In this document: positions 2,440 to 23,761 of the stretch, piece by piece
How positions within the stretch are numbered: position 1 is the first letter of the stretch
Layout: each line of letters starts with the position of its first letter
Assembly (NCBI GenBank): GCA_000719025.1
Contig: JODP01000006.1
Span: 984,430 to 1,008,429 of the forward strand
Reading direction: 5' to 3'
Length of the DNA: 24,000 nt
Source of the DNA: Kineosporia aurantiaca JCM 3230
GTDB taxonomy: Bacteria; Actinomycetota; Actinomycetes; Actinomycetales; Kineosporiaceae
Translations under genes and position numbers: made by a program
The notes under the pieces: generated by a model
Seen by the model: the letters and a program-made list of their open reading frames with translations, nothing else
What the model was told of the DNA's origin: nothing
The model's database searches: none

Positions 2440-3567
2440 GTGACTGACCAAGCGCGTGAATCGTCTGCCGCCCTGCCCGGCTTCTGGGCCATCGTGCCCG
2501 CCGGTGGAGCGGGCACCCGGTTATGGCCGCTGTCCCGCCAGGCCCGGCCGAAGTTCCTGCTGGACCTCACCGGGTCCGGCCGCACGCTGCTGCAGCAGAC
2601 CTGGGACCGGCTGGTGCCGCTGGCCGGGCCGGAGGGCATCATCGTGGTCACCGGCACCGCGCACGCCGAGGCGGTCACCGGCCAGCTGCCCGGACTGACC
2701 GAGGCCAACCTGCTGACCGAGCCCACCCCGCGGGACTCCGCCGCGGCCATCTGCCTGGCCGCGGCCGTGATCGCCGAGCGCGACCCGGAGGCGGTGATCG
2801 GCTCGTTCGCGGCCGACCACGTGATCCGCAACGCCCCCGGCTTCGAGGCGGCGGTGGCCGAGGCGGTGACCGCGGCCCGGCTCGGCGAGATCGTCACCCT
2901 CGGGATCGAGCCGGACCACGCCTCCACCGCGTTCGGGTACATCCAGGTCGGTGAGTCGCTCGGGCTGGCAGGGGCGCCGTCCGCGCACCGGGTCGAGTGC
3001 TTCGTGGAGAAGCCGGACGCCGAGACCGCGGCCCGCTACCTGGAGGAGGGCGGCTACCGCTGGAACGCGGGGATGTTCGTCGCCCGGACCGACGTGCTGC
3101 TGGCCGAGCTGGAGCGCAACCGGCCCGAGCTGCACGCCGGGGTGCTGCGGATCGCCAAGGCCTGGGACACCGAGGAGCGCGACGCGGTGGTCGCGGAGTT
3201 CTGGCCGCAGCTGGAGAAGGTGGCGATCGACTACGCCATCGCCGAGCCCGCCGCCGAGGCCGGCCGGGTCGCGGTCGTGCCCGCGGCGCTGGGCTGGGAC
3301 GACATCGGCGACTGGGCCTCGCTGGCCGCGCTGCTGCCGGGCGACGCGGCGCTCAAGGTGGTCGGCGACGCCGCCCAGGTGCTGGACGTGGACTCGTCCG
3401 GGATCGCCGTGCCGGCCGGTGAGCGGCTGGTCGCGGTGCTCGGGCTGAAGGACGTGGTGGTGATCGACACCCCCTCGGCCGTGCTGGTCACCACCCGGGA
3501 GTGGGCCCAGGACGTGAAGAAGGTCGTGGAGACGCTGACCGAACTCGGAAGGCACGACCTGCGCTAA
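2440..3567 (+). CDS. manC: Mannose-1-phosphate guanylyltransferase (GDP-mannose pyrophosphorylase)
   Basis: ORF 2365..3567. The nucleotidyltransferase signature is FWAIVPAGGAGTRLWPLSRQARPKFL, followed by GYI..G and WNAGMF motifs. The likely start is GTG 2440 (VTDQARE...); the ATG at 2365 is the alternative. Confidence 0.85.
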   Translation: MTDQARESSAALPGFWAIVPAGGAGTRLWPLSRQARPKFLLDLTGSGRTLLQQTWDRLVPLAGPEGIIVVTGTAHAEAVTGQLPGLTEANLLTEPTPRDSAAAICLAAAVIAERDPEAVIGSFAADHVIRNAPGFEAAVAEAVTAARLGEIVTLGIEPDHASTAFGYIQVGESLGLAGAPSAHRVECFVEKPDAETAARYLEEGGYRWNAGMFVARTDVLLAELERNRPELHAGVLRIAKAWDTEERDAVVAEFWPQLEKVAIDYAIAEPAAEAGRVAVVPAALGWDDIGDWASLAALLPGDAALKVVGDAAQVLDVDSSGIAVPAGERLVAVLGLKDVVVIDTPSAVLVTTREWAQDVKKVVETLTELGRHDLR

Positions 3568-4340: not shown

Positions 4341-5401
4341 GACTGAGTGGGCATCGGGCCGTTCTTACTGGTCAGGGCCGGGCGGTGCCGAAACCGGTGC
4401 CTCAGGAGGAGATCTGGGAGGAGGTGTTCGCCCCCCGGCTGAACTCGGACCGGATCGCCCGGCACATCTTCCGGCACGCGGGCATCACCACCCGGCACGC
4501 CGCTGTCGACCCGCGCGACACCGATGTCAGCGGCTGGAGCACGGGCGACCGGATGCGGCGCTACGTTACGGAGGCCCGTTCGCTCGGGGGTAAAGCGGTA
4601 GCCGAGGCGCTCTCGGAAGCCGGGCTCACGGCGTCCCAAATCGGGCTCTTCGTAGTGGTCTCCTGCACCGGTTACGCGACTCCGGGGCTGGACATCCTGA
4701 TCGCCGACGAGTTGGGCATGGCTCCTGACGTGCGCCGCCTGCTGGTGGGTCACATGGGTTGCTATGCCGCAATTCCCGGGCTCAACGCGGCGGCCGACTT
4801 CGTCCGGGCCCAGGGCCGGCCCGCGGTGCTGCTCTGCGTGGAACTGACCAGCCTGCACATGCAGCGCTCGGATGATCCGACGGACCTGCAGACCGTGGTC
4901 TCGCACGCGCTGTTCGCCGACGCGGCGGCCGCGGTGGTGGTGGAACCCGATGCCCCCGTCGGGCTGGAGCTGCTGCACACCACGGCGGCCACCGTCCCGG
5001 GAACCCAGCCGCTGATGACCTGGGACGTCACCGCGCACGGGTTCCGGATGGGACTTTCGCCCAAGGTGCCGGACGTCCTGGCCGGTGAGGTGGGGGAGGC
5101 GATGCGGGGACTGCTGACCCCCTTTGGTCACGGAGTGGACGAAGTGGCCGGGTGGGCGGTGCATCCCGGAGGACGCCGGATCGTCGACGTCGTCGCGGAA
5201 CGGCTACGACTCGGCGACGAAAAGGTCGCGGAGAGCCGGGCGGTCCTGGACGCCTACGGCAACTGCTCCTCGGCCACGGTGCTGATGGTGCTGGACGAGA
5301 TCCGCCGTAAACGCCCGCTCCGCGCCGATGATCCGGTGGTGGCGATGGCTTTCGGCCCCGGCTTGACGCTCTGCAGCGCGCTTTTGAGAACGGTGTGTTA
5401 A
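4337..5401 (+). CDS. Type III polyketide synthase (chalcone/stilbene-synthase superfamily)
   Basis: In the frame of ORF 3968..5401. Catalytic Cys in VVSCTGYATPG, His in WAVHPGGRRI, Asn in YGNCSSATVL, and terminal AFGPGLT. Start assigned to GTG 4337, which overlaps the methyltransferase stop (GTGA, 4337-4340). The upstream 123 codons overlap the methyltransferase and look non-coding. Confidence 0.9.
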   Translation: MRLSGHRAVLTGQGRAVPKPVPQEEIWEEVFAPRLNSDRIARHIFRHAGITTRHAAVDPRDTDVSGWSTGDRMRRYVTEARSLGGKAVAEALSEAGLTASQIGLFVVVSCTGYATPGLDILIADELGMAPDVRRLLVGHMGCYAAIPGLNAAADFVRAQGRPAVLLCVELTSLHMQRSDDPTDLQTVVSHALFADAAAAVVVEPDAPVGLELLHTTAATVPGTQPLMTWDVTAHGFRMGLSPKVPDVLAGEVGEAMRGLLTPFGHGVDEVAGWAVHPGGRRIVDVVAERLRLGDEKVAESRAVLDAYGNCSSATVLMVLDEIRRKRPLRADDPVVAMAFGPGLTLCSALLRTVC

Positions 5402-5410
5402 ATCATCCGC

Positions 5411-6646
5411 GTGCCCCGTCCGGGTGCGTGGAATCACACCGGTCAGGACTATGCTCAACCGATCGTGAACATTCCCGCTCTCGCCCCGCTGGTAGCGGCG
5501 TACGCCGATGAACTGATCGACACGCGCCGGGATCTTCACGCGCATCCGGAACTCGGTTTCCAGGAGGTGCGTACCACCGCGCTGCTGATCGAGAGGCTGG
5601 CCAAGGCCGGGCTCGACCCGCAGCGGATGGCCGGGGGTACCGGGCTGTGGTGCGACATCGGGCCGGCCGGCGGGCGCACGGTCGTCCTGCGCGCCGACCT
5701 GGACGCCCTGCCGATGGCCGACACGTGCGGCCGCCCGTGGGCCTCGACCACCGAGAACGCCACGCACGCCTGTGGTCACGACGTGCACACCACCGGCCTG
5801 CTGGGCGCCGCCCTGGCCCTGGCCGACCTGCACGAGCGCACCCCGCTGCCGGGCCGGGTCCGCCTGCTCTTCCAGCCCGCCGAGGAGAAGATGCCCGGCG
5901 GCGCGCTGCGGGTGCTCGGCGACGGGCTGCTCGACGGGGTCGAACGTGCCTACGCACTGCACTGCGATCCGCACACCGAGGTCGGCTACATCGGCTCCCG
6001 GGTCGGCGCGATCACCGCCGCCGCGGACTACGTCCGGGTCCGGCTGAACGGGCACGGCGGCCACACCTCCCGCCCGCACCTCACCGAAGACGTGATCTTC
6101 GCGCTCGCCTCGGTGGTCACCGGGGTGCCGGCGGCGCTGTCCCGCCGGGTCGACCCCCGCTCCGGCGCCTCGATGGTCTGGGGCCAGATCAACGCCGGGG
6201 TCGCGATGAACGCGATCCCCAGCGCCGGCGAGGTGGCCGGTACCTTCCGCTGCCTGGACGGCGCGGTCTGGACCATCGCCAGCTCGATCATCACCGACAG
6301 CATCCAGCAGATCGTGCAGCCCTACGGCGTCCGGGCCGACGTGGACTACCAGCGAGGGGTGCCGCCCACGGTGAACGACGCGTCGGCCGTGGCGGTGGCC
6401 GAGGCCGCGGTCCGGGCCGAGTTCGGCGCCGACGCCCTGCAGCTCACCCCGCAGAGCCTGGGCGGCGAGGACTTCGCCTGGATCCTGGAGAAGGTCCCCG
6501 GCGCCATGGTCCGGCTCGGTACCCGTACGCCGGGCGGGCCGATGTACGACCTGCACCGGCCCGACTTCGACGTCGACGAGCGGGCGATCTCGATCGCGGC
6601 CACGTTCCTGGCCTCCACCGCGGTGCGGGACCTGTACGCCGGCTGA
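5411..6646 (+). CDS. M20-family amidohydrolase (N-acyl-amino-acid amidohydrolase / hippurate hydrolase type)
   Basis: RRDLHAHPELGFQE, HACGHDVHT, FQPAEE and GGEDFA blocks are characteristic of peptidase M20D. GTG start lies 9 nt after the PKS stop; GTG 5465 is an alternative start. Confidence 0.85.
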   Translation: MPRPGAWNHTGQDYAQPIVNIPALAPLVAAYADELIDTRRDLHAHPELGFQEVRTTALLIERLAKAGLDPQRMAGGTGLWCDIGPAGGRTVVLRADLDALPMADTCGRPWASTTENATHACGHDVHTTGLLGAALALADLHERTPLPGRVRLLFQPAEEKMPGGALRVLGDGLLDGVERAYALHCDPHTEVGYIGSRVGAITAAADYVRVRLNGHGGHTSRPHLTEDVIFALASVVTGVPAALSRRVDPRSGASMVWGQINAGVAMNAIPSAGEVAGTFRCLDGAVWTIASSIITDSIQQIVQPYGVRADVDYQRGVPPTVNDASAVAVAEAAVRAEFGADALQLTPQSLGGEDFAWILEKVPGAMVRLGTRTPGGPMYDLHRPDFDVDERAISIAATFLASTAVRDLYAG

Positions 6647-6648
6647 GG

Positions 6649-7398
6649 TCAGGGCTCGGTCCGCTCCCACGCGGTTCGGTACGACTTCGGTTCCGCGCCC
6701 GGGATCCCGGGCCGGCGCTGCGGTTCGGTCAGGGCCCAGGCCGAGCGGGTGAGCAGGAAGACGGTCACGGCCAGCATCAGTCCGGCGAAGAGCAGAGCGG
6801 GCGCGAGAAGGCCGAACAGCAGCAGGAACACCACCCCCGGCCCGGCCGCGACGGCAGTTGCGGCGCCCGCTGCGAACAGCAGGCCCGGGCTGCTCAGGAA
6901 GGGCCGGCTCGAAACCTCGCCGGGCCGGCGGCGCCCAACCGTGGCGACGGCCAGCACCACGACCACGGTGACGGCGATCGAGCCGAACAGGATGCCGTTG
7001 TACGTCCAGTACGGGATCAGGCTCTTCGAGGTGCCGTCGGCGAAGTTGCACTGGTTCTGCAGAGGGAAAGCGCTGTACGTGTAGTAAGCCCGAGGGTCCA
7101 GGGGCTTCTCCGGGCACAACTCGGAGGTGCCCCGGAGACCGCCGGCGAAGCTGGTGGCGACCAAGAGGATCAGGTAGAGCACGGACGTGACGAGAACGGC
7201 CAGCAGCCCGGCCGCGACCCGGCCGGCGATGCCACTGAGCCTCGAGCTGATCACGCCCGGACGATAACCCGGCCTGTCGGGGTCCGGACCCTTTTCGGGG
7301 GATTCGGCCCTGACCTCGATCATCTCTTCGGCGGTGGGAGCCAGTGACGAACAGATTTCCACGGTTACGGTTCGGCCACCGAATGGTTCCGGCTCCAA
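6649..7398 (-). CDS. Hypothetical integral membrane protein (about 4 predicted TM segments)
   Basis: ORF 249 aa with hydrophobic runs (AAGLLAVLVTSVLYLILLVA; ILFGSIAVTVVVVLAVA; LLFAAGAATAVAAGPGVVFLLLFGLLAPALLFAGLMLAVTVFLL). No family recognised. Start uncertain (an internal Met, MIEVRAE, is possible). Confidence 0.5.
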   Translation of the reverse strand: MEPEPFGGRTVTVEICSSLAPTAEEMIEVRAESPEKGPDPDRPGYRPGVISSRLSGIAGRVAAGLLAVLVTSVLYLILLVATSFAGGLRGTSELCPEKPLDPRAYYTYSAFPLQNQCNFADGTSKSLIPYWTYNGILFGSIAVTVVVVLAVATVGRRRPGEVSSRPFLSSPGLLFAAGAATAVAAGPGVVFLLLFGLLAPALLFAGLMLAVTVFLLTRSAWALTEPQRRPGIPGAEPKSYRTAWERTEP

Positions 7399-11433: not shown

Positions 11434-12686
11434 CCGCCACGCTGGAGACCACTACCCCGCCGCCCGCGGACGGCCCGGTCGTCACCTCGCGCCGGAGCTT
11501 GTCGCCCCGGCTGCCGCTATACCTCCTGGGCGGTCTGGTACTGCTCAGCCTAATCCGGGTGATCGCCGACGCGGACGACCTGACCTCGGCCGGGACCATC
11601 GGGGCGGCCCTCACTCTGGCCGTGCCGATCGGCCTGGCCGGGCTGGGCGGCCTGTGGTCGGAGCGGGCCGGCGTGGTCAACATCGGCCTCGAGGGCATGA
11701 TGATCCTCGGCACCTTCGGGGCCGGCTGGATCGGCTGGCAGCACGGTCCCTGGGCGGGCCTGATCACCGCGATCGCGTTCGGGGTGCTCGGCGGTCTGAT
11801 CCACGCCGTCGCCACCGTCACCTTCGGCGTCGACCACGTGGTCTCGGGCGTCGCGATCAACATCCTCGGCCTCGGCGCCACCCAGTACCTGGCCGGCGAG
11901 TTGCTCACCGGCACCCCGGGCGGCGGCGAGACCCAGTCCCCGCGGATCTCCGCGCTGCCCGAGGTCTCGGTGCCCGGCGTCTCGAGCCTGAAGTCGCTGG
12001 AGAACCACCACTGGTTCCTGATCTCCGATATCGCCGGCATCCTGCGCGGCCTGCTGGTCAACGTCTCGATCCTGACCGTGATCGCGGTTGTGCTGGTGAT
12101 CCTCAGCTATCTGATCCTCTGGCAGACCCCGTTCGGCCTGCGCCTGCGCTCGGTCGGGGAGGACCCGCACGCGGCCGAGTCCCTCGGCGTGAAGGTGCGC
12201 AGCTACAAGTACGCGGCGGTCGCGGTTTCCGGTGGTCTGGCCGGCCTGGCCGGTGGCTTCCTGGCCATTGTCGCCTCCGGCTTCTACCGGGAAGGTCAGA
12301 CCGGCGGCCGTGGTTACATCGGCCTGGCCGCCATGATCTTCGGCAACTGGCGCCCGGGCGGCCTGGTCGCCGGTGCGGGCCTGTTCGGCTACACCGACGC
12401 GATGCAGCTGCGCAACTCCACCGCTGTCCACGCCCTGCTGCTAGTCATCTTCGTCCTGCTACTCTTCGTGGCCGGGCTGAACATCTACCGCCGCAAGTTC
12501 GTCCCGGCCGGGATCGCCGTGGTCGTCGCCGTGCTAGCGCTGATCTGGTACCTGAACACCGACGAACTGCCGGGCCCGATCACCACCATGACGCCGTACG
12601 TCACCACGCTCTTGGTGCTCGCCCTTTCGGCACAGCGCCTGAGAATGCCGAAGGCCGACGGTCTGGTCTACCGCCCAGGAGAATAG
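11430..12686 (+). CDS. ABC transporter permease (second membrane subunit)
   Basis: SERAGVVNIGLEGMM and RSVGEDPHAAESLGV motifs; multi-TM. ATG overlaps the preceding stop (ATGA 11430-11433). Confidence 0.9.
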   Translation: MTATLETTTPPPADGPVVTSRRSLSPRLPLYLLGGLVLLSLIRVIADADDLTSAGTIGAALTLAVPIGLAGLGGLWSERAGVVNIGLEGMMILGTFGAGWIGWQHGPWAGLITAIAFGVLGGLIHAVATVTFGVDHVVSGVAINILGLGATQYLAGELLTGTPGGGETQSPRISALPEVSVPGVSSLKSLENHHWFLISDIAGILRGLLVNVSILTVIAVVLVILSYLILWQTPFGLRLRSVGEDPHAAESLGVKVRSYKYAAVAVSGGLAGLAGGFLAIVASGFYREGQTGGRGYIGLAAMIFGNWRPGGLVAGAGLFGYTDAMQLRNSTAVHALLLVIFVLLLFVAGLNIYRRKFVPAGIAVVVAVLALIWYLNTDELPGPITTMTPYVTTLLVLALSAQRLRMPKADGLVYRPGE

Positions 12687-12691
12687 ACGTG

Positions 12692-13180
12692 ATGTCAGAT
12701 GCCCAGCAGGCCGCGGCCGACGCGGATCCGGAGTTCTACCCGGGCCGGGTGGCGGGCGACGCAAGTCCTGGCGAGATCGACTGGACGGCCCTTCGGGCGG
12801 CCGCCCGCCTGATCATGCAGAAGGCCTACGCCCCCTACTCCGGCTTCCCGGTGGGGGCGGCGGCTCTCGTCGAGGACGGTCGCATCGTCACCGGCTGCAA
12901 TGTTGAGAACGCATCGTACGGCGTCGGTCTCTGCGCCGAGTGCGGCTTGGTCTCCTCGCTCAATGCCACCGGTGGTGGGCGGCTGATCGCCTTCACCTGT
13001 GTGGGGCCGGACGGCGAGTCGCTGATGCCGTGCGGACGCTGCCGTCAATTGTTGTACGAATTCGGCGGCCCGGAACTGCTGGTCGACACTTCGCACGGGG
13101 TCGTAACGATGACGCAGGTGCTGCCAAATGCGTTCGGCCCAGCGGATCTGTCGCGGGCAACGAGGCCGGCGCACCCATAA
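12692..13180 (+). CDS. cdd: Cytidine deaminase
   Basis: C-terminal part of track ORF 11654..13180. AYAPYSGFPVGAA, zinc ligands in GLCAECG and PCGRCRQ. ATG 12692 (or GTG 12689) lies just after the permease stop at 12684-12686. Confidence 0.9.
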   Translation: MSDAQQAAADADPEFYPGRVAGDASPGEIDWTALRAAARLIMQKAYAPYSGFPVGAAALVEDGRIVTGCNVENASYGVGLCAECGLVSSLNATGGGRLIAFTCVGPDGESLMPCGRCRQLLYEFGGPELLVDTSHGVVTMTQVLPNAFGPADLSRATRPAHP

Positions 13181-13625
13181 CGCCCTCGATTCAACTTTTG
13201 ATTCTTCGACAGGTGCTTTACAGGGCGGGCGGGGCTTTCCCGGCGCCAAGGCTTGCAGTGACCATGGCGAAGAATTCGGTGATTCTGGCAAGCCTTAGTC
13301 TTGGCCGACTGGCCCAATCCGCGCGGGGCGAAGCCGTCCGAGCGAGACTTGCTTCGGCTCAGGGCCGTCAGTACGCGATCGCTGAAAAGCTTGGGGCCCT
13401 CCCCACGGTGACTTCAAAGTAATCTTGGGTGTCTGTTCAGGACGAACGGTCGCTAAGCGGACGAAGAGACTCTGGATGCGAGGAGCGCGACCCTAGTCGA
13501 TCATGGAACTGTCTTAGAGACCGTGATCGCAAAGGCTGTGCCCGTGGATCTTCCCAACATCATCCTGCATACTTCGACCAGTCGGGCCCAGGGAAAACTG
13601 GGGTCGCAGTCTGCCGGATGTCACT

Positions 13626-14100
13626 ATGGGTGAGATTAAGAGCGGCGCGTCCGTGCTGTCCGGGAACGCAGACCCGCGCAAGGCCCGCGGCATTCGCCAC
13701 AGTGCCTTCGGCTTGCTGACGGGCGTGATGCTCGCAGTCCTGGCCGGAGGCTGGACCACGGTCGAGATAGCCGAGCGCGCCCGGGACCTCAGCGCCGGCC
13801 AGCGGGAGCAGGTGGGGCTGACATGGGCAACGGCGCCGAGTCTGTCCACGATCCGCAGGTTCCTGCTGGTCCTGGAGCAGGTGGTCCTGCAGGAACCCTC
13901 AACGTGTGGGCGCAGTCGCATGCGGCACAAGATCCGCACCGAAGGCCGCTGATTCTGGAAGAAACTCGAAACGGGCTACTACCTGTGCACTCTCGACCAA
14001 GTCGCTCTCCCCGTCAGCCGGTTCGCCCAAGCCGTACGGGAACACTGGTCCATCGAGTCCTGGCACTGGATCTCGTGTTTTGACAGTCTTGAGGGCGGCG
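13626..14100 (+). pseudogene. ISAs1-family transposase remnant (N-terminal domain fused to a C-terminal stub; large internal deletion and frameshifts)
   Basis: ADPRKARGIRHSAFGLL..AVLAGGWTTVEIAERARDLS...PSLSTIRRFL matches the ISAs1 N-terminal (DDE_Tnp_1_assoc) pattern. At about 13960-14050, another frame reads ETGYYLCTLDQVALPVSRFAQAVREHWSIES, the ISAs1 C-terminal block. The DDE core between the two is missing. Confidence 0.55.
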
Positions 14101-14258
14101 ACAGTGAACGAGATTCGGAATCGGTTAAGGGTTGATACATCGAGTCTGCATCATGGCTTCCGGCCCGGCGACGCGGGTTTGGGTGTGAAGGCGGCGATCA
14201 TCGGGTCAAGCCCATGGAGGTTGTGTAAAGGCCGTGTCGCGTGATTCTTCGTTACTGG

Positions 14259-14426
14259 TCAGGCGGTGATTGCCTGGACATCGGGTGTCCTCCTTCGTGG
14301 GTGGGGTGGCGGTGCGGGCCTGGGCGAGGATTTCGGGCCGAGGTAGCGGCGTCCTTCGATCCATTCGTCGTGTTGCTCGGCCAGGACGGCGCTGGCTAGC
14401 CGGATCAGCGCGGCGCGGTTGGGGAC
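14259..14426 (-). pseudogene. C-terminal stub of a second IS256-family (IS1081-like) transposase
   Basis: Reverse translation PNRAALIRLASAVLAEQHDEWIEGRRYLG is the conserved extreme C-terminus of Mutator/IS256 transposases. Nothing upstream of it survives. Confidence 0.55.
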
Positions 14427-14449
14427 TGTCCAAAACTGATGTAACGCAG

Positions 14450-15757
14450 TCCAGCAGGGGTCATCAACGGTGCTGGGTGTGAGGCGGCCTTCGAAGGTAT
14501 TGGCGAAAGCGTTGAGGGCGAGTTTCCACCTGACTAACCACTTTGCCCGACCTCGCCCGGTGGGGTCCAGGGAACGGGGCACGAGATACAGGCACTTCAT
14601 CGCTGATTGCTCGGTCGGGAAGTGCCCACGGGCGTTCGCTGCCCGCCGGTAGCGGGAGTTGAGGACTCGATCGCGTTGGTCGTGCAGATGATCTACCGGA
14701 TCTCGATGTCGAACTGCAGGAACGGCACGAACTCGGCCCAGGCGCTGCGCCAGAGCTTGATGATGGCCGGGCAACGGTGCCCCCAGGCCTCGTCGAACTC
14801 CTCTAGCCGTTCGGGTGCCGCGGCCTCGGTCGAGGCCGTGTAGACGGGTTTGAGGTCCTTGGCGAGCTTGGCCCAGTGCTGACGCGGTGCATAGCGGAAG
14901 CTGTTGCTCAGCAGATGAACGACAAGCGTCTGGACAAAAGTGTTCGGCCAGACGGTGCTGATGCTGACCGGTAGGCCCTTCAGCCCGTCGCAGACGAGCA
15001 TGAGGACGTCCTCGACGCCCCGGTTCTTGATCTCGGTCAGGACCTGCTGCCAGAACTTGGCTCCTTGGCCGGCCTGGGAGTCCTTGCCGGCCCACAGGCC
15101 CAGGATGTCCCGGTCACCGTTGGTCGTCACGCCGATCGCGACGTAAACGGGCCGGTTGGTGACTTTGCCGTCGCGGATCTTGACCATGATCGCGTCCACG
15201 AACACGACCGGGTAAACGCGGTCCAGGGGCCGGTTCTGCCGTTCGACCATCTCGGCGCTCACGGCATCCGTGATTCTCGGGACCTGGTCTTTCCCAACGC
15301 TGGCGCCGTAGATCTCGGCGAAGTGCGCCGAGATCTCGCCGGTCGTCAAACCCTTCGCCGTCAGCGACAAGACGATCTCATCGACCGAGTCCAGACGTCG
15401 CAGGCACTTCTTCACGATCACCGGCTCGAACGATCCGTCGCGGTCGCGGGGAACAGCCACTTCAACCAGCCCGACGCCGGTCAGGACCGTCTTGGAGCGC
15501 CGGCCGTTGCGCGAGCTGCGCCCATTGCGGCCCTTGGGGCCGTGGGCCTCGCAACCGAGGTGCTCGGCCATCTCCGTCTCGAGCGCGACCTCCAGGATCC
15601 GCTTGGTCACCTGAGCCATCAGCCCGTCCGGGCCGGCCAGATCTGCGCCAGCGGCTTTGGCCTGAGCGACCAGATCCACAGCCGGCCGCTATTGATCCCC
15701 ACCCGTCACGAGCGTCCCGATGATCTCACCCTCATTACCCAAAACATGCTTCTGCAT
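14450..15757 (-). pseudogene. IS256-family (Mutator-type) transposase, inactivated
   Basis: Own translation from ATG (cat 15755-15757): MQKHVLGNEGEIIGTLVTGGDQ*RPAVDLVAQAKAAGADLAGPDGL..., colinear with IS256 transposases (track ORF 14693..15679). There are in-frame TAG codons at 15689-15691 and 14693-15695-type position 14693-14695. A 1-nt deletion near 14661-14664 follows, after which IICTTNAIES continues in another frame as LNSRYRRAANARGHFPTEQSAMKCLYL...FEGRL. Confidence 0.8.
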
Positions 15758-15794
15758 CTTATTATTCGTTGAATCCGGGGCCCCGTCACGGGCT

Positions 15795-16010
15795 CGATGG
15801 CGTCGGACATCCCCTGCTCCTGTCCGCCGAACCTTCATCCGCCCTCACCTGGGCACCGAGGGGCCGGTAGGCGTCCCGGCCACCGTTACGGGCGACCTCC
15901 CGCGAGATGACCGAGGCACCCCGGCCCAGCCGGGCCCCGATCACCCGTCACGTCCGGCCCGCCGCCAGACCCGCCAAGATCTCTTCCCGCTTTTCCTGAC
16001 ACAACTCCAT
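15795..16010 (-). pseudogene. IS30-family transposase N-terminal (HTH) fragment
   Basis: Own reverse translation from cat 16008-16010: MELCQEKREEILAGLAAGRT*RVIGARLGRGASVISREVARNGGRDAYRP. This matches the IS30 HTH region (..ISREIxRNGG..YRA). It has an in-frame TGA (15948-15950) and no catalytic domain; the 3' limit is approximate. Confidence 0.5.
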
Positions 16011-16122
16011 GCCCTGCAAGTACTTCCAGCTCCATCACATCAAGATCACCCAGTCAAAGACCGGCAATCATGCCACGTGATGCACTGAGCTTGTCCGAGT
16101 AACCGCCTCAAACAGAACGTGA

Positions 16123-16944
16123 TCATGTGGTGCGGGCGTGTTCGTGGTGGAGAAGGACCAGGGCGGCGGCGATATGGCCGATGCGCCAGGGGCATCCGCG
16201 CCAGGGGCGCAGGGCTTTGAATGTGGTCTTCAGGATCGAGTTGGCCCGTTCGCCCAGGGCTCGCACAGCGCTGTGGAGACTGTTGTGGGCCTTCCGGTTC
16301 ACGGTCAGACTCGCGCCGGCGGGTTTCTTGAACGGCACGTATAGAACGTTGGTTTCGCCTTCGTAGCCCAGGTCGGCCAGGGCCTTGTGCTCGTCGTCGA
16401 GCCAGGCCCGCAGGTCATCGAGCAGGTGCGGGTCGGTGCGGGCGGCGGTGGTGTCGTGCTCACGGCCCGAGCGCACGTTTGAGGTCCACAACGGCCAGTC
16501 GTCCGGGGCCGAGACGACCTGGATGTTCCCGCCATGGCGCTGGTGCTTGCCCGACCACCACAGGTCCACCCCGGGCGTGGGCCCGCGTGTATGGATCCGG
16601 TCGGTCTCGATCAGGGTGCCGTCCAGGATGACATGCGTGTGACCGGCAGCCCGGGCGGCCAGGAGCCCCCCGCGCGGGCCGGGCCGGCGCTCTGCTAGCA
16701 CCCTGATGGCCTCGTCCCGGTAGGCGTAGGCGGTCGAGTCCGAGATCTTGTTGTCCCTGGCCAGGCGGGACATCCGGGTGTCATCCACCAGCCACCGCAA
16801 CACCAGAACGGCCTGCCGGTACGTTGTCAAAGCCTTTTTGCTCGAACGCGTCTCACGCCGGGCGCGCTCGTTCGCCAGCAGGGCGGACAAGAACGGCACA
16901 AGGTCCTCGGATCCTTCCAGGACCCCTTGATGTGAGACGCTCAT
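16123..16944 (-). CDS. DDE_Tnp_4 (PIF/Harbinger-like, IS5-superfamily) transposase; ORF intact
   Basis: 273-aa ORF. HVILDGTLIETDR, WWSGKHQRHGGNIQVVSAPDDWPLWTSNVRSGREHDTTAAR and ALADLGYEGE form the D-D-E blocks in the usual order and spacing for DDE_Tnp_4. Confidence 0.8.
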   Translation of the reverse strand: MSVSHQGVLEGSEDLVPFLSALLANERARRETRSSKKALTTYRQAVLVLRWLVDDTRMSRLARDNKISDSTAYAYRDEAIRVLAERRPGPRGGLLAARAAGHTHVILDGTLIETDRIHTRGPTPGVDLWWSGKHQRHGGNIQVVSAPDDWPLWTSNVRSGREHDTTAARTDPHLLDDLRAWLDDEHKALADLGYEGETNVLYVPFKKPAGASLTVNRKAHNSLHSAVRALGERANSILKTTFKALRPWRGCPWRIGHIAAALVLLHHEHARTT

Positions 16945-16948
16945 GAAC

Positions 16949-17005
16949 GCGCGGAACCTCTGGGGTGATGACTGTGAGAGGTTTCGTCCTATCGAGGTTC
17001 CGCGC
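16949..17005 (-). promoter_or_regulatory. Perfect 12-bp stem hairpin in the transposase leader
   Basis: gcgcggaacctc (16949-16960) and gaggttccgcgc (16994-17005) are exact reverse complements separated by 33 nt. The proximal arm ends 4 nt from the ATG at 16944 (minus sense: ...GAGGTTCCGCGCGTTCATG). Confidence 0.35.
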
Positions 17006-17159
17006 TCTCGATCTCCCCGCCACGCCGCACCCGCCGCAGAGTCACTGCCCGCTCATCGCCATCACATTCGTAGCTACGCTACGACGCGATCGGGACTGCC
17101 CCCAGCTTGGTTGACTCCTGACTGTCAAGGACTGCGGTCCTTGCTGAGAGGATGTCAAC

Positions 17160-17444
17160 GTGCCCACACCGTTCCCCGAGGAGTTCCGCCGCGACGTGAT
17201 CGCTGTCGCCCGTAAGGGCGATGCCACGATCGAGCAGGTCGCGAAGGACTTCGGCGTCTCCGCATCGACCCTGCACCGCTGGCTGAAGATTGCTGACGAT
17301 CAGGACACCACCCAACCAGGCGGTGCCCAGGGCGACTCCGCGGAGCTCAAGGAACTGCGTAAGCGCAACCGGCTGCTGGAGCAGGAGAACGAGATCCTGC
17401 GGAGAGCAGCGGCCTACCTGGCCAGGGACATCAACCCAAAATGA
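17160..17444 (+). CDS. IS3-family transposase OrfA (HTH plus leucine-zipper)
   Basis: FPEEFRRDVIAVARKGDATIEQVAKDFGVSASTLHRWLK followed by LKELRKRNRLLEQENEILRRAAAYLA; classic IS3/IS911 OrfA. Confidence 0.85.
   Translation: MPTPFPEEFRRDVIAVARKGDATIEQVAKDFGVSASTLHRWLKIADDQDTTQPGGAQGDSAELKELRKRNRLLEQENEILRRAAAYLARDINPK
17435..17441 (+). other. Candidate programmed -1 ribosomal frameshift heptamer C CCA AAA
   Basis: X XXY YYZ heptamer in the orfA frame (CCA 17436-17438, AAA 17439-17441), immediately before the orfA stop TGA 17442-17444. orfB (17441..) is in the -1 frame. Confidence 0.5.
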
Positions 17445-18313
17445 TCTACCCGCTGGTCCGTGAACTGGCCGCCGACAAGGACAATCCGATTCCTGTCGCG
17501 GTGACCTGCCGGGTGCTGGGCTTCTCCAAGCAGACCTACTACAAGTGGCTGAAGAATCCCATCTCACAGCGCGACTGGGACCAGGCGCACCTGATCAACG
17601 CCGCCCTCGACGTCCACCGCGACGACCCGGAGTTCGGCTACCGGTTCATCGCCGACGAACTCAAGGAGGCCGGCTGGAAGGCCAGCCCGAACCGCGTCGC
17701 CAGACTCTGCTCGGCGCAACAAATCTGGTCGGTGTTCTCAAAGAAACGCGGCCTGAATCGCAAGGCCGGCCCGCCCGTTCACGACGATCTCGTGCGACGG
17801 AACTTCACCGCCGATCGACCGGATCAGGTGTGGCTCACGGACATCACCGAACATGCCACGAGCGAAGGCAAGATCTACCTGTGCGCCATCAAGGACGTCT
17901 TCTCCAACCGGATCGTGGGCTACTCCATCGACTCCCGAATGAAGGCCTCACTAGCCGTCAGGGCCCTCAAAAACGCTGTCTCCCTGAGAAAACCGTCCAA
18001 GACAATAGTCCACTCGGACAGGGGAAGTCAGTTTCGTTCCCGGAAGTTCGTCAAGGCGCTCAAGGACGCGGACCTACGTGGATCGATGGGCAGAGTCGGC
18101 GCCTGCGGCGATAACGCAGCCATGGAATCGTTCTTCGCCCTGCTGCAGAAGAACGTCCTGGACCGCCGGATCTGGAAGACCCGCCAAGACCTACGCCTGG
18201 CGATGATCACCTGGATCGAACGGACCTACCACCGCCGACGACGGCAAGCCGCCCTCGGCCGGCTCACCCCGATCGAGTACGAGACCGTTCGCGGTCATAC
18301 ACTGGCTGCCTGA
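17441..18313 (+). CDS. IS3-family transposase OrfB (DDE integrase core)
   Basis: VWLTDITEH (D), HSDRGSQFRS (D), DNAAMESFFALLQKNV (E); rve-type catalytic core. Confidence 0.85.
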   Translation: MIYPLVRELAADKDNPIPVAVTCRVLGFSKQTYYKWLKNPISQRDWDQAHLINAALDVHRDDPEFGYRFIADELKEAGWKASPNRVARLCSAQQIWSVFSKKRGLNRKAGPPVHDDLVRRNFTADRPDQVWLTDITEHATSEGKIYLCAIKDVFSNRIVGYSIDSRMKASLAVRALKNAVSLRKPSKTIVHSDRGSQFRSRKFVKALKDADLRGSMGRVGACGDNAAMESFFALLQKNVLDRRIWKTRQDLRLAMITWIERTYHRRRRQAALGRLTPIEYETVRGHTLAA

Positions 18314-18651
18314 TCACCCAAACCGTGAGTCAACCGGCTTGGGGGCAGTCCCATCTATTGCTCGGGATGGCTCACTGACCGCTTGAGACCGCCTATTGCT
18401 TCTCATCGATTGGGGCCGCTGCCGTAGATCTAACGACGTCGTAAATGTCATGCGACCTTCCGCCGGAAAGTTGAGTTCGGTTGGTTCGGGGCACATTACG
18501 CCGTTCCCTGGCAGCCTCCCGCGTGAGTTTTGGGTGGCATACCGGAAAATGGACAATGAATCAAGAGGTTGACTCTTGCATGCCATCGTGTCACTGTCTG
18601 TGCGTGCTGCAAAGCTCGCAAATGGGGCAGTTTCTTGGGAGGGAAAAGAGC

Positions 18652-18978
18652 ATGATGCTTCGTCGCAGGATGGGAATCGCTGCAGCAGTTGCGATGGCTG
18701 GGTTGACGGGGGTTCTGATGCCGACCGTGGCACATGCTTCGGCATCGACTCTTTGGAACTGCACTACAGACTACGACACAGTGGATTATGCCTGGGGTGG
18801 GGCAAGGTGCAGTAACGGCACGGGCCAATTCCGTGTCGTTATCACTTGTTACAACGGGTCGGGGAGTAAGGCCACAACGGGGGGGCCGTGGAGATCTGCA
18901 GGCAAGGTCTGGTCGGACGCCTTCTGCCCAGGATCATCGAATATTGTTCCGCGCGAAACTATCATCCAGTATCGGTAA
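18652..18978 (+). CDS. Small secreted protein, 108 aa, four Cys in the mature part; no family recognised
   Basis: Internal start in track ORF 18481..18978: GGGAGGG (18638-18644) then ATGATG at 18652. Signal peptide MMLRRRMGIAAAVAMAGLTGVLMPTVAHA/SA. The mature region of about 79 aa has Cys in NCTTD, ARCSNG, ITCYNG and AFCPG. Many A/T-ending codons, unlike the core genes. Confidence 0.5.
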   Translation: MMLRRRMGIAAAVAMAGLTGVLMPTVAHASASTLWNCTTDYDTVDYAWGGARCSNGTGQFRVVITCYNGSGSKATTGGPWRSAGKVWSDAFCPGSSNIVPRETIIQYR

Positions 18979-19127
18979 TTACGACACTGTAGCTTCGCCT
19001 GGTTTGCGATGGAAATCGTGACTAGTGGATAGGAACGGTTCAAGATCTCTACCATCCGGCGATGCGAGCGGCCGTGATAGTGAGGGCGCCGGGCTGCTGG
19101 TAGCCCCAGCAGTTCGGCCCCCTTTGG

Positions 19128-19407
19128 CTATCGAAACTTGTCATATTCGAAAGGTTCTCGGCCAAGGTGCTGGCTCGGGTGGGGCAACGTCGGGTACGCC
19201 GGTACCTGCAGGGTGACCGGCTCGCCGATCTTCAGGGTGAGAAGCTCACCGTGGTGGATGATCTCGAGCTCGTCCGCGGGGTTGCGCTCGTGATCGGTGA
19301 GCAGGTACGTGGCCTGCTTGCCGTCCGTCTCCACCCGCAGGCGCAGGCCCTTGTGGGTGATCGTGAAGGCGAGCCGGTCCAGCCCCTCCGGAAGGCGCGG
19401 GGCGAAG
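19128..19407 (-). pseudogene. Orphan 3' fragment (last 92 codons) of a GH65 glycoside phosphorylase gene
   Basis: Reverse translation ...HFAPRLPEGLDRLAFTITHKGLRLRVETDGKQATYLLTDHERNPADELEIIHHGELLTLKIGEPVTLQVPAYPTLPHPSQHLGREPFEYDKFR* parallels the C-terminus of the GH65 gene at 21610-21877. It is abutted at 19407/19408 by IS66-derived sequence. Confidence 0.7.
19209..19407. repeat. Copy 1 of a 199-bp direct repeat (partner 21679-21877)
   Basis: Manual alignment at a constant offset of 2470 nt gives 197/199 identical (differences at 19275 C/T and 19308 C/G). Identity falls to roughly 5-9 of 10 per 10-nt block immediately left of 19209, and homology stops abruptly after 19407. Confidence 0.9.
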
Positions 19408-20030: not shown

Positions 20031-20036
20031 AGTGCC

Positions 20037-21338
20037 ATGACCGAACCCTTCTCCGCCGTCGAAGTCATCGCCGCTAAACGTGACCGCAACCGGCTGACCG
20101 ATGCGCAGATCGACTGGGTGGTGGACGCGTACACCCGCGGCGCGGTGGCCGATGAGCAGATGTCCGCCCTCCTCATGGCGATCCTGCTGAACGGCATGTC
20201 CAGCGCCGAGATCTCGCGCTGGACCGCCGCGATGATCGCCTCGGGTGAGCGGCTGGACTTCAGCGGCCTGTCCCGTCCGACCACCGACAAGCACTCCACC
20301 GGCGGCGTCGGGGACAAGATCACCCTGCCGCTGACCCCGCTGGTCGCGGCCTGTGGGGCGGCGGTGCCGCAGTTGTCCGGGCGGGGGCTGGGGCACACCG
20401 GGGGCACGCTGGACAAGCTGGAGTCGATCCCGGGGTGGCGGGCGGCGCTGAGCAACGATGAGATGACGCGGCAGCTGGCCGAGGTCGGTGGGGTCATCTG
20501 TGCCGCGGGGGAAGGGTTGGCTCCGGCCGACCGGAAAATGTATGCGCTGCGTGATGTTACGGGCACGGTCGAGGCGGTTCCGTTGATTGCCTCCTCGATC
20601 ATGAGCAAGAAGATCGCGGAGGGCACCGGGGCGCTGGTGCTGGACGTGAAGGTCGGTAGCGGCGCGTTCATGAAGACCGAGGAGCAGGCCCGGGTCCTGG
20701 CCCAGACCATGGTTCAGCTCGGGGTGGACGCCGGGGTGAACACGGTGGCCCTGCTGACCGACATGTCCACGCCGCTCGGCCTGACCGCCGGCAACGCCCT
20801 GGAAGTACGCGAGTCGCTGGAGGTGCTGGCCGGGGGAGGCCCGCCGGACGTGGTCGAGCTGACCCTCAACCTGGCCCAGGAGATGCTCGAGGCGGCCGGG
20901 ATTTCCGCGGATCCGGAGCAGGTGCTGAAGGACGGCCGGGCGATGGACTCCTGGCGCCGGATGATCGCTGCGCAGGGCGGTGACCCTTCGGCGGAGTTGC
21001 CGACGGCAAAGCACACGCAACACGTGCTGGCCCCGGCCGACGGAGTGCTGGTGAGCCTGGACGCGATGGCCGTGGGGGTCAGCGCTTGGCGGCTCGGGGC
21101 CGGGCGCTCGCGGAAGGAAGACCCGGTTCAGGCTGCGGCGGGGGTCGAGATGCACGTCAAGCCGGGTGGCGAGGTGCGCGCCGGCGAGCCACTTTTCACG
21201 CTGCACACCGATACCCCGGAGCGCTTCGAATCGGCGGAGGCGGCGCTCGAAGGTGGCTACCAGATCGCCCCCTACGGCGACCGACCCGTGCACAACCCGC
21301 TCATCATCGACCGCATCACCGCCACCCCCTCCTCCTGA
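20037..21338 (+). CDS. deoA: Thymidine / pyrimidine-nucleoside phosphorylase
   Basis: 433 aa. KRDRNRLTDAQIDWVV, LLMAILLNGM, TTDKHSTGGVGDKITLPL, LSGRGLGHTGGTLDKLESIPG and SSIMSKK are hallmark blocks of the family. Confidence 0.95.
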   Translation: MTEPFSAVEVIAAKRDRNRLTDAQIDWVVDAYTRGAVADEQMSALLMAILLNGMSSAEISRWTAAMIASGERLDFSGLSRPTTDKHSTGGVGDKITLPLTPLVAACGAAVPQLSGRGLGHTGGTLDKLESIPGWRAALSNDEMTRQLAEVGGVICAAGEGLAPADRKMYALRDVTGTVEAVPLIASSIMSKKIAEGTGALVLDVKVGSGAFMKTEEQARVLAQTMVQLGVDAGVNTVALLTDMSTPLGLTAGNALEVRESLEVLAGGGPPDVVELTLNLAQEMLEAAGISADPEQVLKDGRAMDSWRRMIAAQGGDPSAELPTAKHTQHVLAPADGVLVSLDAMAVGVSAWRLGAGRSRKEDPVQAAAGVEMHVKPGGEVRAGEPLFTLHTDTPERFESAEAALEGGYQIAPYGDRPVHNPLIIDRITATPSS

Positions 21339-21361
21339 CCCCGCACCCCCACCCCCTCGTC

Positions 21362-21522
21362 GTGATCATGCACTTCCGCCCTCGTGATCATGCACTTTCA
21401 TCTTCGCGATCATGGAGTTTTACCCCCGTGATCATGGAGTAAAACTCCATGATCACCGGGAAAGAAGTCCATGATCACCGGGAAAGAAGTCCATGATCAC
21501 GGGGGAAGAAGTCCATGATCAC
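21362..21522. repeat. Array of eight 9-bp TGATCA-core motifs with 22-bp phasing, four in each orientation, around a perfect 29-bp palindrome
   Basis: GTGATCATG at 21362, 21384 and 21428; GCGATCATG at 21406. The reverse complement CATGATCAC is at 21448, 21470, 21492 and 21514. Start-to-start spacings are 22, 22, 22, 20, 22, 22, 22. Centre gtgatcatggagt-aaa-actccatgatcac (21428-21456) has perfect 13-bp arms. The 22-mers at 21448-21469 and 21470-21491 are identical. Confidence 0.85.
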
Positions 21523-21557
21523 GAAGGTGTGGGGGGTTGAAAAGCTCTTGAAACAAC

Positions 21558-21596
21558 GGACGCCCGCCGGCCCCGAAAAGGGGCTGACGGGCGTCC
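21558..21596. terminator. GC-rich hairpin between convergent deoA and GH65 genes; probable bidirectional terminator
   Basis: ggacgcccgccggcccc / gaaaa / ggggctgacgggcgtcc: 9 bp plus 5 bp of stem around a 3-nt internal mismatch. It ends 13 nt before the GH65 stop codon complement (21610-21612). Confidence 0.55.
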
Positions 21597-21609
21597 ATCA
21601 TTGGAAGAA

Positions 21610-23761
21610 CTAGCGGCGCAACGGCTCCCGGCCGAACGGCTGGCTCGGGCGCGGCAGCGTCGGCGTGGTCGGCACCGCCAGGGTGACCGGCTCGCCGATC
21701 TTCAGGGTGAGAAGCTCACCGTGGTGGATGATCTCGAGCTCGTCTGCGGGGTTGCGCTCGTGATCGGTGAGCAGGTAGGTGGCCTGCTTGCCGTCCGTCT
21801 CCACCCGCAGGCGCAGGCCCTTGTGGGTGATCGTGAAGGCGAGCCGGTCCAGCCCCTCCGGAAGGCGCGGGGCGAAGCCGGACCGTGAGCTTCTCGTAGT
21901 ACGCGAAGTTCGCGGCCTTCTGCTCCGGGGTGAACGCGTCCCCCCGCAGCTGCATGGCCAGCACCAGGTCGGCCTGCTTGACCACCTGCAGCCGGTAGAG
22001 CTGCACGTAGGGCATGGTCAGCAGGAGCGGGTAGTCGGCCTCGGTGAGCGACTCGAAGTCCATCACCGCGTGCCGGGTGAAGCCCTCGGCCTGCGGGTGC
22101 ACGCCCAGCGCCTCGTCGAACGGGATGAACATCGAGTCGGCGCACTGCCGCCAGGCGCTGATCTCCTCCGAGTCCACCCCGAGCTCCTCGGCCTCGGTCT
22201 GGTAGGAGACCGCCGCGGTGGCCGCGGCCCGCAGGTTCCGCTGGGCCATCAGGTTGGTGTAGACGTTGTTGTCGGTGATCGCGCTGTACTCGTCCGGCCC
22301 GGTGACCCCGTCGATCCGGAACCAGCCGTCCCGGTCGAACTGGCCGTAAGAGCGCCACAGGCGGGCGGTCTCGACCAGCAGCGGCAGGCCGATCTCCCGG
22401 TCGAACTCGTCGTCCTCGGTGGCTCCGTGGTAGCGGATCACGGCGTCGGCGATGTCGGCGTTGATGTGGAACGCCGCGGTGCCGGCCGGCCAGTAGCCCG
22501 AGCACTCGTCCCCGTTGATCGTCCGCCACGGGAACGCCGCGCCCTTCAGACCCAGCGTCGCCGCCCGGTCCTTGGCCTTCTGCAGCGTGCTGTGCCGCCA
22601 GCGCAACGCGTCGGCCGCGGCCCGCGGCGCCGTGTGGATCAGCACCGGCAGCACGAAGGTCTCGGTGTCCCAGAAGCAGTGGCCGTCGTAGCCCGGGCCG
22701 GTCAGGCCCTTGGCCGGCACCGGCCGCTGCTCGGCGCGGGCGCCGGCCTGGATGATGTGGAAGAGCGAGAAGCGCACCGCCTGCTGGAGCTCCTCGTCGC
22801 CGTCGACCTCGACGTCGGCGCGGGCCCAGAACTCGTCCAGGTACTGCCGCTGCTCGGCCAGCAGGTCGTCGAAGCCGGTGTGGATGGCCCCGGTCAGCCC
22901 GGCCGCCACCTGGTCGCGCAGGGCGGGCAGGGAGCGCTGCGAGGACCAGCCGTAACTGACGAACTTGATCAGCCGCAGCTTCTGGCCCGGGCGCAGGGTG
23001 GCGGTGACGGTGAGCCGGCCCCAGTCCGGCCGGACGCCCCAGTTGGTGGAGACCTTGACGCCCTCCGGCACCTCGATCACGTGCTCAGCGGCCGCGGCGA
23101 CCCGTCGCCCGCTGTGCCGGGTCTCGTGGACCAGCGTGATCCGGTTGCCGTTGCAGTCGTGCTCCAGGGCCTGCAGCGGATTGTGCATCGCCGCGGCCAC
23201 CCGGGGGTCGACCGAACCGCCTTCGGGTAGCTGCTCGTTGGCGACCAGCTCGGACTGCAGCACCACGCGCGCGGTCTCGTGCACCGGCTCGACCTCGTAG
23301 GCGATCGCCATCACCGAACGGTGGGTGAACGAGACCAGCCGGGTCGAGGTGACGCGCACCGCCTGGTCGGCGGGGGAACGCCACTCCACCTCCCGGCGCA
23401 GCGTGCCCGCCCGCATGTCCAGCACCCGCTCGTGCTTGTCCAGGTGGCCGTAGCGCAGGTCGAAGGGCTCGTCGTCGACCAGCAGGCGGATCAGCTTGCC
23501 GTTGGTGACGTTGATGATGGTCTGGCCCGACTCCGGGTAGCCGTACCCGGCCTCCGCGTAGGGCAGCGGCCGGCGTTCGTACACCGAGTTCAGGTAGGTG
23601 CCCGGAAGACCGTGGGGCTCGCCCTCGTCCAGGTTGCCGCGGATCCCGATGTGCCCGTTGGACAGGGCGAAGACGGACTCGGTGGAGCCCAGGTCGTCCA
23701 GGTTCAGTTCGGTCTCCCGAATGCACCACGGCTCGACGGTGAATGCCGCTCGACGGTTCAT
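21610..23761 (-). pseudogene. GH65-family glycoside hydrolase/phosphorylase (maltose/trehalose/kojibiose-phosphorylase-like) with an internal out-of-frame deletion
   Basis: Track ORF 21716..23761 is GH65-like for 628 codons (ESVFALSNGHIGIRGNLDEGE..., GYDGHCFWDTETFVLP, ...ANFAYYEKLTVR). At about 21877 the expected DSSLS-containing segment is missing. The GH65 C-terminal domain (SGFAPRLPEGLDRLAFTITHKG...PLRR*, to stop 21610-21612) continues in a different frame. The break coincides with the end of the 199-bp repeat. Confidence 0.75.
21679..21877. repeat. Copy 2 of the 199-bp direct repeat (partner 19209-19407)
   Basis: See copy 1. It lies inside the C-terminal-domain coding part of the GH65 pseudogene. 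Confidence 0.9.

Follow-up and report, generated by a model that had tools for sequence, protein, structure and literature searches.

A 214-bp foldback insertion at the 3′ end of deoA in Kineosporia aurantiaca, probably one copy of a mobile repeat family

Introduction

Downstream of deoA in Kineosporia aurantiaca lies an array of eight short motifs, evenly phased and arranged in two inverted sets. The question it raises is whether such a structure serves the gene beside which it stands. The initial annotation thought mainly of a cooperative protein-binding array acting at the deoA locus (iterons, a par site, an operator or a cluster of GATC sites), and named a MITE-like foldback element as an alternative. 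We have analyzed the array in its window (the whole stretch of 24,000 nucleotides that contains it), the orthologous site in relatives and related copies at other loci.

Results

Layout of the array

The array holds eight 9-bp cores that span 21362-21522. Four are read on the plus strand (starts at 21362, 21384, 21406 and 21428) and four on the minus strand (21448, 21470, 21492 and 21514), with start-to-start steps of 22, 22, 22, 20, 22, 22 and 22 bp; the coordinates confirm the number, orientation and spacing given in the initial annotation. The four 22-bp units of the left arm (21362-21436, plus strand) are 78% alike and carry the cores GTGATCATG, GTGATCATG, GCGATCATG and GTGATCATG. The four inverted units of the right arm (21448-21522, minus strand; cores CATGATCAC on the plus strand) are 96% alike, and two of them are identical. 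TRF reported the same 22-bp tandem arrays at 21360-21436 (78% matches) and 21446-21522 (96% matches). At the array center is the perfect 13+3+13 palindrome described earlier, which is read directly from the sequence at 21428-21456 (GTGATCATGGAGT-AAA-ACTCCATGATCAC); it is made of the innermost cores, GAG/CTC and an AAA loop, and forms the predicted hairpin tip. Every copy had been said to contain both TGATCA and GATC. This is true of GATC (8/8), whereas TGATCA is found in seven of the eight, the third core being GCGATCATG. The first base, previously given as G or C, is G in every core when read on its own strand.

Chance is excluded as the origin of the core cluster, because SYGATCATG was observed 14 times in the window versus 0.98 expected, with eight of the 14 inside 161 bp. 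Outside the array, TGATCA occurs 16 times in the window (about 3.8 expected from dinucleotide shuffles), nearly always as CTGATCA at Leu-Ile codons, and this surplus is probably a codon-usage effect that carries no signal. Two resemblances to nearby insertion sequences (IS) look coincidental and were rejected: a single GTGATCATG at 16119, beside the stop codon of an IS5-like transposase, and GATCATC in the ends of an IS256-like element.

The initial annotation had described an imperfect hairpin of about 190 bp, of which the foldback holds and the extent does not. A repeat finder identified inverted arms of 93 nt at 21348-21440 and 21444-21536 that are 76% complementary. Folding the RNA of both strands, a check proposed in that annotation, gave long hairpins of -124 and -127 kcal/mol with z values near -12 (-12.3 and -11.7), and the DNA fold gave z = -11.6. 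Either strand is predicted to form a single long hairpin with only the central AAA unpaired at its tip. The whole element measures 214 bp (21324-21537), beginning with ACCCCC and ending with GGGGGT. Its left terminal C-rich block (21324-21361, plus strand) has an inverted counterpart in the right terminal G-rich block GAAGGTGTGGGGGGT (21523-21537, plus strand). The left block holds the current deoA stop codon and a fifth, degenerate left unit, CTGACCCCG (21335-21343), which lies 27 bp ahead of the first core; this unit at the element's left end explains a 27-bp repeat of 78% identity linking 21317-21343 and 21344-21370. As for coding capacity, the TGA in the core closes all frames within three units, and the overlapping ORFs are spurious only. 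Automatic gene calls nevertheless open ORFs at the core ATG ('MITGEV...'), which distorts the annotation.

Insertion at the 3′ end of deoA

The gene next to the array, deoA (20037-21338, plus strand), encodes a thymidine phosphorylase with the Pfam domains Glycos_trans_3N, Glycos_transf_3 and PYNP_C. Its sequence is 90-91% identical to the thymidine phosphorylases of Kineosporia babensis and Kineosporia sp. NBRC 101731, and one NCBI entry matches at 100%. The initial annotation had suggested looking for the array at the orthologous deoA 3′ region, and we found it missing from the deoA/GH65 site in three of three relatives: K. babensis (L115) and two lineages (L116/L245 and L117/L118) whose deoA genes are each 95% identical to that of the window. 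By BLAST, window 20036-21323 corresponds to L245 10000-11287 and window 21538-21880 to L245 11288-11628, so that L245 is contiguous at 11287|11288 where the window has 214 extra bases (21324-21537). A MAFFT alignment with L116, L117 and L118 agrees with these limits. Judged by alignment, the array at this site is a clean 214-bp insertion that is absent from close relatives.

The insert lies between the final ancestral sense codon of deoA, GCC (21321-21323), and the ancestral TGA (21538-21540, plus strand), which the empty-site alignment identifies and which is now 214 bp downstream of that codon. In the two close relatives the empty site reads ...ATTAC(T/C) G(C/T)C TGA AAAC... and runs into the hairpin AAAACCCT(G/T)GTAACAATGGACGCCCGCC.... 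The insertion has rebuilt the 3′ end of the gene: the current stop codon, TGA at 21336-21338, is inside the insert, and the DeoA C-terminus is ...ITATPSS* in the window versus ...ITA* or ...ITV* in relatives, the insert having added TPSS*. The mapped ends form terminal inverted repeats (ACCCCC...GGGGGT). No target-site duplication was found at the deoA insertion; the flanks are ...CACCGCC| and |TGAAAAG, and target bases were neither duplicated nor lost. We considered whether the two TGA triplets (21336-21338 and 21538-21540) could be a 3-bp target duplication. This is less parsimonious, as it requires an extra 12-bp insertion, ACCCCCTCCTCC, that is missing in relatives.

Beyond the element, between deoA and GH65, the initial annotation had placed a separate hairpin at 21558-21596. 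This hairpin is real and is also present in L115, L116 and L117, all of which lack the array. It is kept across four lineages with varying loops, and its stem is preserved by paired substitutions (GGACGCCCGCC...GGCGGGCGTCC versus GGACGTCCGCC...GGCGGACGTCC; GCC/GGC versus GTC/GAC). It is likely a candidate ancestral bidirectional terminator, without a U tract. No terminator-like sites were called in 21000-22000, and the element itself, a 214-nt hairpin without a T run, does not have the form of an intrinsic terminator.

Several other features of the region are recorded here. In K. babensis (L115), a 136-residue minus-strand ORF without a recorded Pfam match lies at 5280-5690, between deoA and the conserved hairpin, where the two closer relatives have about 20 bp; the gap between deoA and the hairpin has thus been remodeled repeatedly. 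Between cdd and deoA, about 6 kb of the window (13159-19149) has no counterpart in the syntenic L245 and forms an IS-rich plastic zone. It contains an IS256-like element (terminal inverted repeats 14178-14205 and 15716-15743, with a Transposase_mut ORF), an IS5-like DDE_Tnp_4 ORF (16123-16944) and an IS3-like element (26-bp terminal inverted repeats 17092-17117 and 18327-18352, with an rve ORF). A 258-bp direct repeat of 92% identity (19150-19407 and 21620-21877), derived from the GH65 3′ end, brackets deoA and the array. The main GH65 gene (21716-23761) lacks 212 bp found in L245 at 11629-11840 (junction 21877/21878), which explains its frameshift, and it is probably a pseudogene.

Related copies at other loci

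Pattern scans built on the core and its period retrieved related arrays elsewhere. Scanning genomes with the pattern ATGATCA N13-17, taken three times, gave at least 113 matches, and one relevant locus (L049) was among the matches listed. A tighter pattern gave at least 120 matches in metagenomes, with L151, L159 and L192 among the matches listed; the other metagenome matches listed fell mostly among unrelated coding repeats rich in His, Val and Met or among other minisatellites. Since these four loci were retrieved by core and period, their likeness in those two features comes partly from the retrieval. Independent evidence comes from features that the pattern did not specify, namely foldback layout, C run, terminal blocks, taxonomy and empty sites. 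A sixth copy, in L244, is independent of the search pattern as a whole, its contig having been obtained for another purpose.

With the window copy (five left units, one of them degenerate, and four right units; period 22 bp), the family comprises L049 from a Kineosporiaceae metagenome-assembled genome (3 + 3 units, 21 bp), three loci of metagenome Ga0190273, namely L151 (3 + 2), L159 (2 + 5) and L192 (4 + ≥5, the contig ending there), each with a 22-bp period, and L244 of ENA ERZ24825749 (1 + 1, to which a period does not apply). The minimal copy in L244, at 3305-3371, reads ACCCCCAACCCGATC-GTGATCATG-cgaaagttccg-CATGATCAC-GACAGGTTGGGGGG; its termini are ACCCCCAACC and GGTTGGGGGG, and it comes directly after the TGA of a rhodanese gene. 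Best protein matches assign L159 and L192 to Kineosporia, with 77-79% and 87-89% identity, respectively, to named Kineosporia proteins. Dispersal is known from six loci in at least four lineages, of which L159 and L192 share a metagenome and are both assigned to Kineosporia, and L151, from that same metagenome, is not placed.

The genes that flank these copies are unrelated: deoA/GH65 in the window, PanE/rhodanese in L159, a sugar ABC permease in L192, rhodanese/acyltransferase in L244 and, for L049 and L151 in list order, ArsR-like/CysS-like and HAD/rhomboid. Empty sites were found here too. The L159 locus is empty in L244, where the PanE-rhodanese gap is 39 bp, and Kineosporia sp. NBRC 101677 (L241) has no array there. 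The 1 + 1 copy of L244 is missing from L159, L241 and L242, and L241 has an ordinary G+C-rich hairpin in its place. Together with the window, this makes three loci at which the insertion is polymorphic. No further copies were found in about 52 kb of other Kineosporia DNA (about 21 kb each for L241 and L242 and about 9 kb for L115) or in the 21 kb around deoA of the close relative L245. At several loci, ORFs run into the element and stop at a TGA that it supplies (L049 at 6733-6735 and 6861-6863, L151 at 926-928, L159 at about 3759); in L049, both convergent genes end at the TGA of the outermost cores.

An array of another kind lies in L014 at 5378-5897 (OW818657.1, a metagenome-assembled chromosome of 59% G+C). 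It consists of 23 tandem 22-bp units (CATGATCATG + TTCCCC.GCAC.) in one orientation, with a single inverted unit at the far end and terminal inverted repeats ACTCATGAYCRTG. A 7-bp direct repeat, TGCCCTC, stands on both sides, and a host hairpin (GAAAGCTC/GAGCTTTC) carries the element in its loop. This looks like a true MITE with target duplication, and its core likeness to the Kineosporia family may be a product of the search pattern only.

Constant and variable parts

All copies share one build. A terminal C-rich block is followed by n units, each made of GTGATCATG and a spacer of 12-13 nt, and by a loop; m units in inverted orientation come next, and a terminal G-rich block closes the element. 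Aligning the units of all six loci showed the core GTGATCATG unchanged in 35 of 36. The four to five bases 5′ of the core are mostly C and the three bases 3′ of it are (C/G)A(C/G), the 'SAS' triplet. The spacer ends in a C run, and most of its positions carry less than 1 bit of information across the 36 units; outside the C run and the triplet it is almost uninformative. Spacers differ strongly between loci and are near-identical within an arm, where units are up to 100% identical (three are identical in L159). The copies as wholes are not near-identical, the core and the C-rich blocks being their only common parts; their ends share inverted blocks of the type ACCCC(C)A(A/C)CC. Arm sizes (left + right) are 1+1, 3+2, 3+3, 2+5, 5+4 and 4+≥5, often unequal, and the gap between the innermost cores ranges from 11 to 49 nt. 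The period is 21-22 bp in every array-bearing locus. A long hairpin is predicted for all copies (z = -6.5 to -13), with spacer pairing between the two arms at about 6-9 of 13 positions.

Discussion

Does the array serve the locus or the chromosome?

One explanation of the array is that it is a host cis-acting site, for the deoA locus or for the chromosome, on which a protein polymerizes along cores two helical turns apart, in the manner of iterons, centromere-like sites, nucleoid-protein arrays or GATC clusters that sense methylation. The near-invariant 9-bp core does argue for sequence-specific recognition by a protein, and its constancy in 35 of 36 units, against drifting spacers, is what such a site would show. 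So is the 21-22-bp period held at every array-bearing locus; judging from the period alone, the cores would lie on one face of the helix, which fits cooperative binding. It also agrees with this explanation that termination does not require the array, as the conserved hairpin comes after it. However, the orthologous site is empty in three relatives, two of which have a 95% identical deoA. The copies elsewhere have unrelated neighbors, with no rep, par or regulator gene nearby, and their arm sizes (1+1 to 4+≥5) and loops (3-49 nt) are unconstrained. Flanking ORFs that enter the element also suggest an insertion and not a designed site. Because the site is empty in the nearest relatives and the same element stands beside unrelated genes, the locus-specific operator, iteron or partition reading favored in the initial annotation was dropped, and the array does not seem to regulate nucleoside catabolism. 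In its wider form, with a role for the chromosome included, we consider a host binding array quite improbable.

Does the element act at the RNA level?

A second explanation is an RNA-level element, a REP- or BIME-like stem-loop of 3′-UTRs or intercistronic regions that stabilizes the mRNA upstream, blocks read-through between convergent genes or is a target of RNase III, and that might be mobile as well. The very stable hairpins predicted for both strands speak for it. So do the positions of the copies, at gene 3′ ends and in intercistronic gaps (between PanE and rhodanese in L159, upstream of the ABC permease in L192), a placement that resembles the classic REP position between malE and malF. 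Against it, the spacers of the two arms pair poorly and the arms can differ in size, as in L159 with 2 units against 5. Nor are compensatory changes seen in the core, which is simply invariant, and structure alone does not explain this. A U tract and a terminator-like call are both lacking, and an ancestral terminator, its stem kept by paired changes, has been retained beside the element. Rfam gave no family match at the gathering threshold, and at E ≤ 1 there were only sub-threshold, generic hairpins resembling microRNA precursors. We regard an RNA element as an unlikely explanation, and any RNA-level role would more probably be a side effect of the element than its main function.

A probable mobile foldback repeat

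Based on these observations, we think it likely that the array represents a family of non-autonomous foldback elements resembling MITEs and REPINs, in which a putative trans-acting protein would recognize the core and the arms would grow by slippage. The MITE-like alternative of the initial annotation is thus largely supported by the empty sites and the dispersed build, and at the same time it is qualified, as the copies are not near-identical and no target duplication is seen. Under this proposal, a putative recombinase or transposase acting in trans would move the element through the invariant 9-bp core. The inverted cores of the two arms would be comparable to the sets of binding sites that transposon ends carry or, alternatively, to hairpins recognized on single-stranded DNA. 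Selection for mobility would preserve the core while the spacers drift, and arm length would shift locally through replication slippage or unequal exchange, which is the proposed reason for near-identical units within an arm and for unequal arms.

Slippage might be thought to suffice without mobility. A palindromic minisatellite could arise locally through slippage and hairpin-templated inverted duplication, being neither mobile nor functional; near-identical units in each arm and a variable unit number are what slippage predicts, and the absence of a target duplication is in keeping with it. Yet six unrelated loci from several lineages have the core, C run, 'SAS' triplet and terminal blocks in common, and in the window one clean insertion of 214 bp interrupts an otherwise collinear site. 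A purely local origin is therefore highly improbable.

The lack of a target duplication is unlike a textbook MITE. It points toward REPIN- or IS200-IS605-like mechanisms or site-specific ones, although insertion junctions have been mapped to the base at one copy, that at deoA. For the mobile foldback element we would thus favor a duplication-free mechanism, either single-strand 'peel and paste' or site-specific recombination, over the staggered cut of a classical DDE transposase. In the DNA covered here, neither an autonomous partner nor an associated protein came to light; the window's three IS elements have unrelated terminal repeats, and there is no RAYT gene within its 24 kb. A more specific possibility is a RAYT-like or FB-like system in Actinobacteria, in which a dedicated, probably vertically inherited GTGATCATG-binding protein would assemble on the arrays, phased at two helical turns, and would not only disseminate them but also lend them a function for the host, such as insulating convergent transcription or organizing the nucleoid. 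We keep this idea open as a long shot because core conservation is near-absolute despite diverged spacers and because there is no target duplication. In the preferred reading, the effects on deoA and GH65 (a long 3′ untranslated RNA hairpin and a four-residue tail) would be by-products and not the array's raison d'être.

If this proposal is correct, Kineosporia has an interspersed repeat family that is apparently undescribed. Searching the literature with the 9-mer core matched primers only, and we found no description of such a Kineosporia repeat. Plasmid and phage collections searched by BLAST with the 214-bp element gave no match, and of two pattern scans of viral contigs, one gave no matches and the other chance pairs only. 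The family would offer a simple natural system for studying the upkeep of a recognition site in a mobile element whose other parts drift, the evolution of array length, and the agents that mobilize foldback elements without target duplication in high-G+C Gram-positive bacteria. The element also rewrites gene ends, as seen in the TPSS* tail of deoA and in several flanking ORFs that end at a core TGA, and it causes gene callers to extend ORFs wrongly into the arrays.

Comparison with known systems

Among known classes, the element has the size of a MITE (214 bp, below about 500 bp), is non-coding and has terminal inverted repeats; target-site duplication is a MITE feature that it lacks at its mapped insertion. 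Some transposons have multi-site ends, among them Mu with its MuA sites and Tn7 with its TnsB sites, both about 22 bp, and also IS21 and Tn402. The Kineosporia element resembles them in having several sites of about 22 bp in one orientation at one end and inverted at the other. It differs in that their target duplications of 4-8 bp, 5′-TG...CA-3′ tips, uneven phasing and own transposase were not found in it. Iteron and centromere-like arrays (R1 parC, F sopC, plasmid iterons) also have evenly phased core repeats, sometimes in two inverted sets, as are seen here. They differ from this dispersed array in their linkage to rep or par genes, in numbering one or a few per replicon and in keeping a conserved position; the Kineosporia array lies beside deoA and a probable GH65 pseudogene, and three relatives lack it at that site.

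REP, REPIN and BIME sequences, mobilized by RAYT transposases, are reportedly short extragenic inverted doublets that form hairpins and cause no target duplication. Such REP/RAYT systems have been described mainly in Proteobacteria and are, to our knowledge, little documented in high-G+C Gram-positive bacteria. The Kineosporia element agrees with them in its inverted doublets that form a hairpin, its extragenic and duplication-free insertion, its higher-order clusters and its location at gene 3′ ends or between cistrons. Its sequence is also lineage-specific and conserved inside the lineage. However, a REP unit is an imperfect palindrome of 20-40 nt, whereas the 22-bp unit of Kineosporia is palindromic only in the 6-bp TGATCA, and each Kineosporia arm consists of as many as 5 units in tandem. 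In form only, the element may be likened to the Foldback (FB) transposons of Drosophila and other eukaryotes, which have long inverted arms of short tandem repeats, varying in number by copy and by arm, and a variable center. FB elements are kilobase-sized, with 9-bp target duplications, and some carry coding DNA.

The BOX elements of Streptococcus pneumoniae, small dispersed intergenic repeats with a variable number of units, are a further comparator. BrickBuilt, a MITE of Porphyromonas gingivalis, is the closest described bacterial element found in our literature search; it has 23-nt tandem units, is present in 19 copies and is always intergenic, with 'leader' and 'tail' subunits that carry small inverted-repeat ends and a minisatellite body of variable length (PMC4596501). 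BrickBuilt and BOX share with the Kineosporia element small size, non-coding and dispersed intergenic nature, units of about 22-23 nt in variable number, short inverted-repeat ends and a limited host range. Their units form one head-to-tail run, whereas those of Kineosporia form two inverted arms that turn the whole element into a hairpin. In the Kineosporia element, moreover, only the 9-bp core is kept between copies and target duplication is not seen. Hairpin arms that are tandem arrays of a phased unit, in which the 9-bp core alone is constant, are an unusual build for bacteria.
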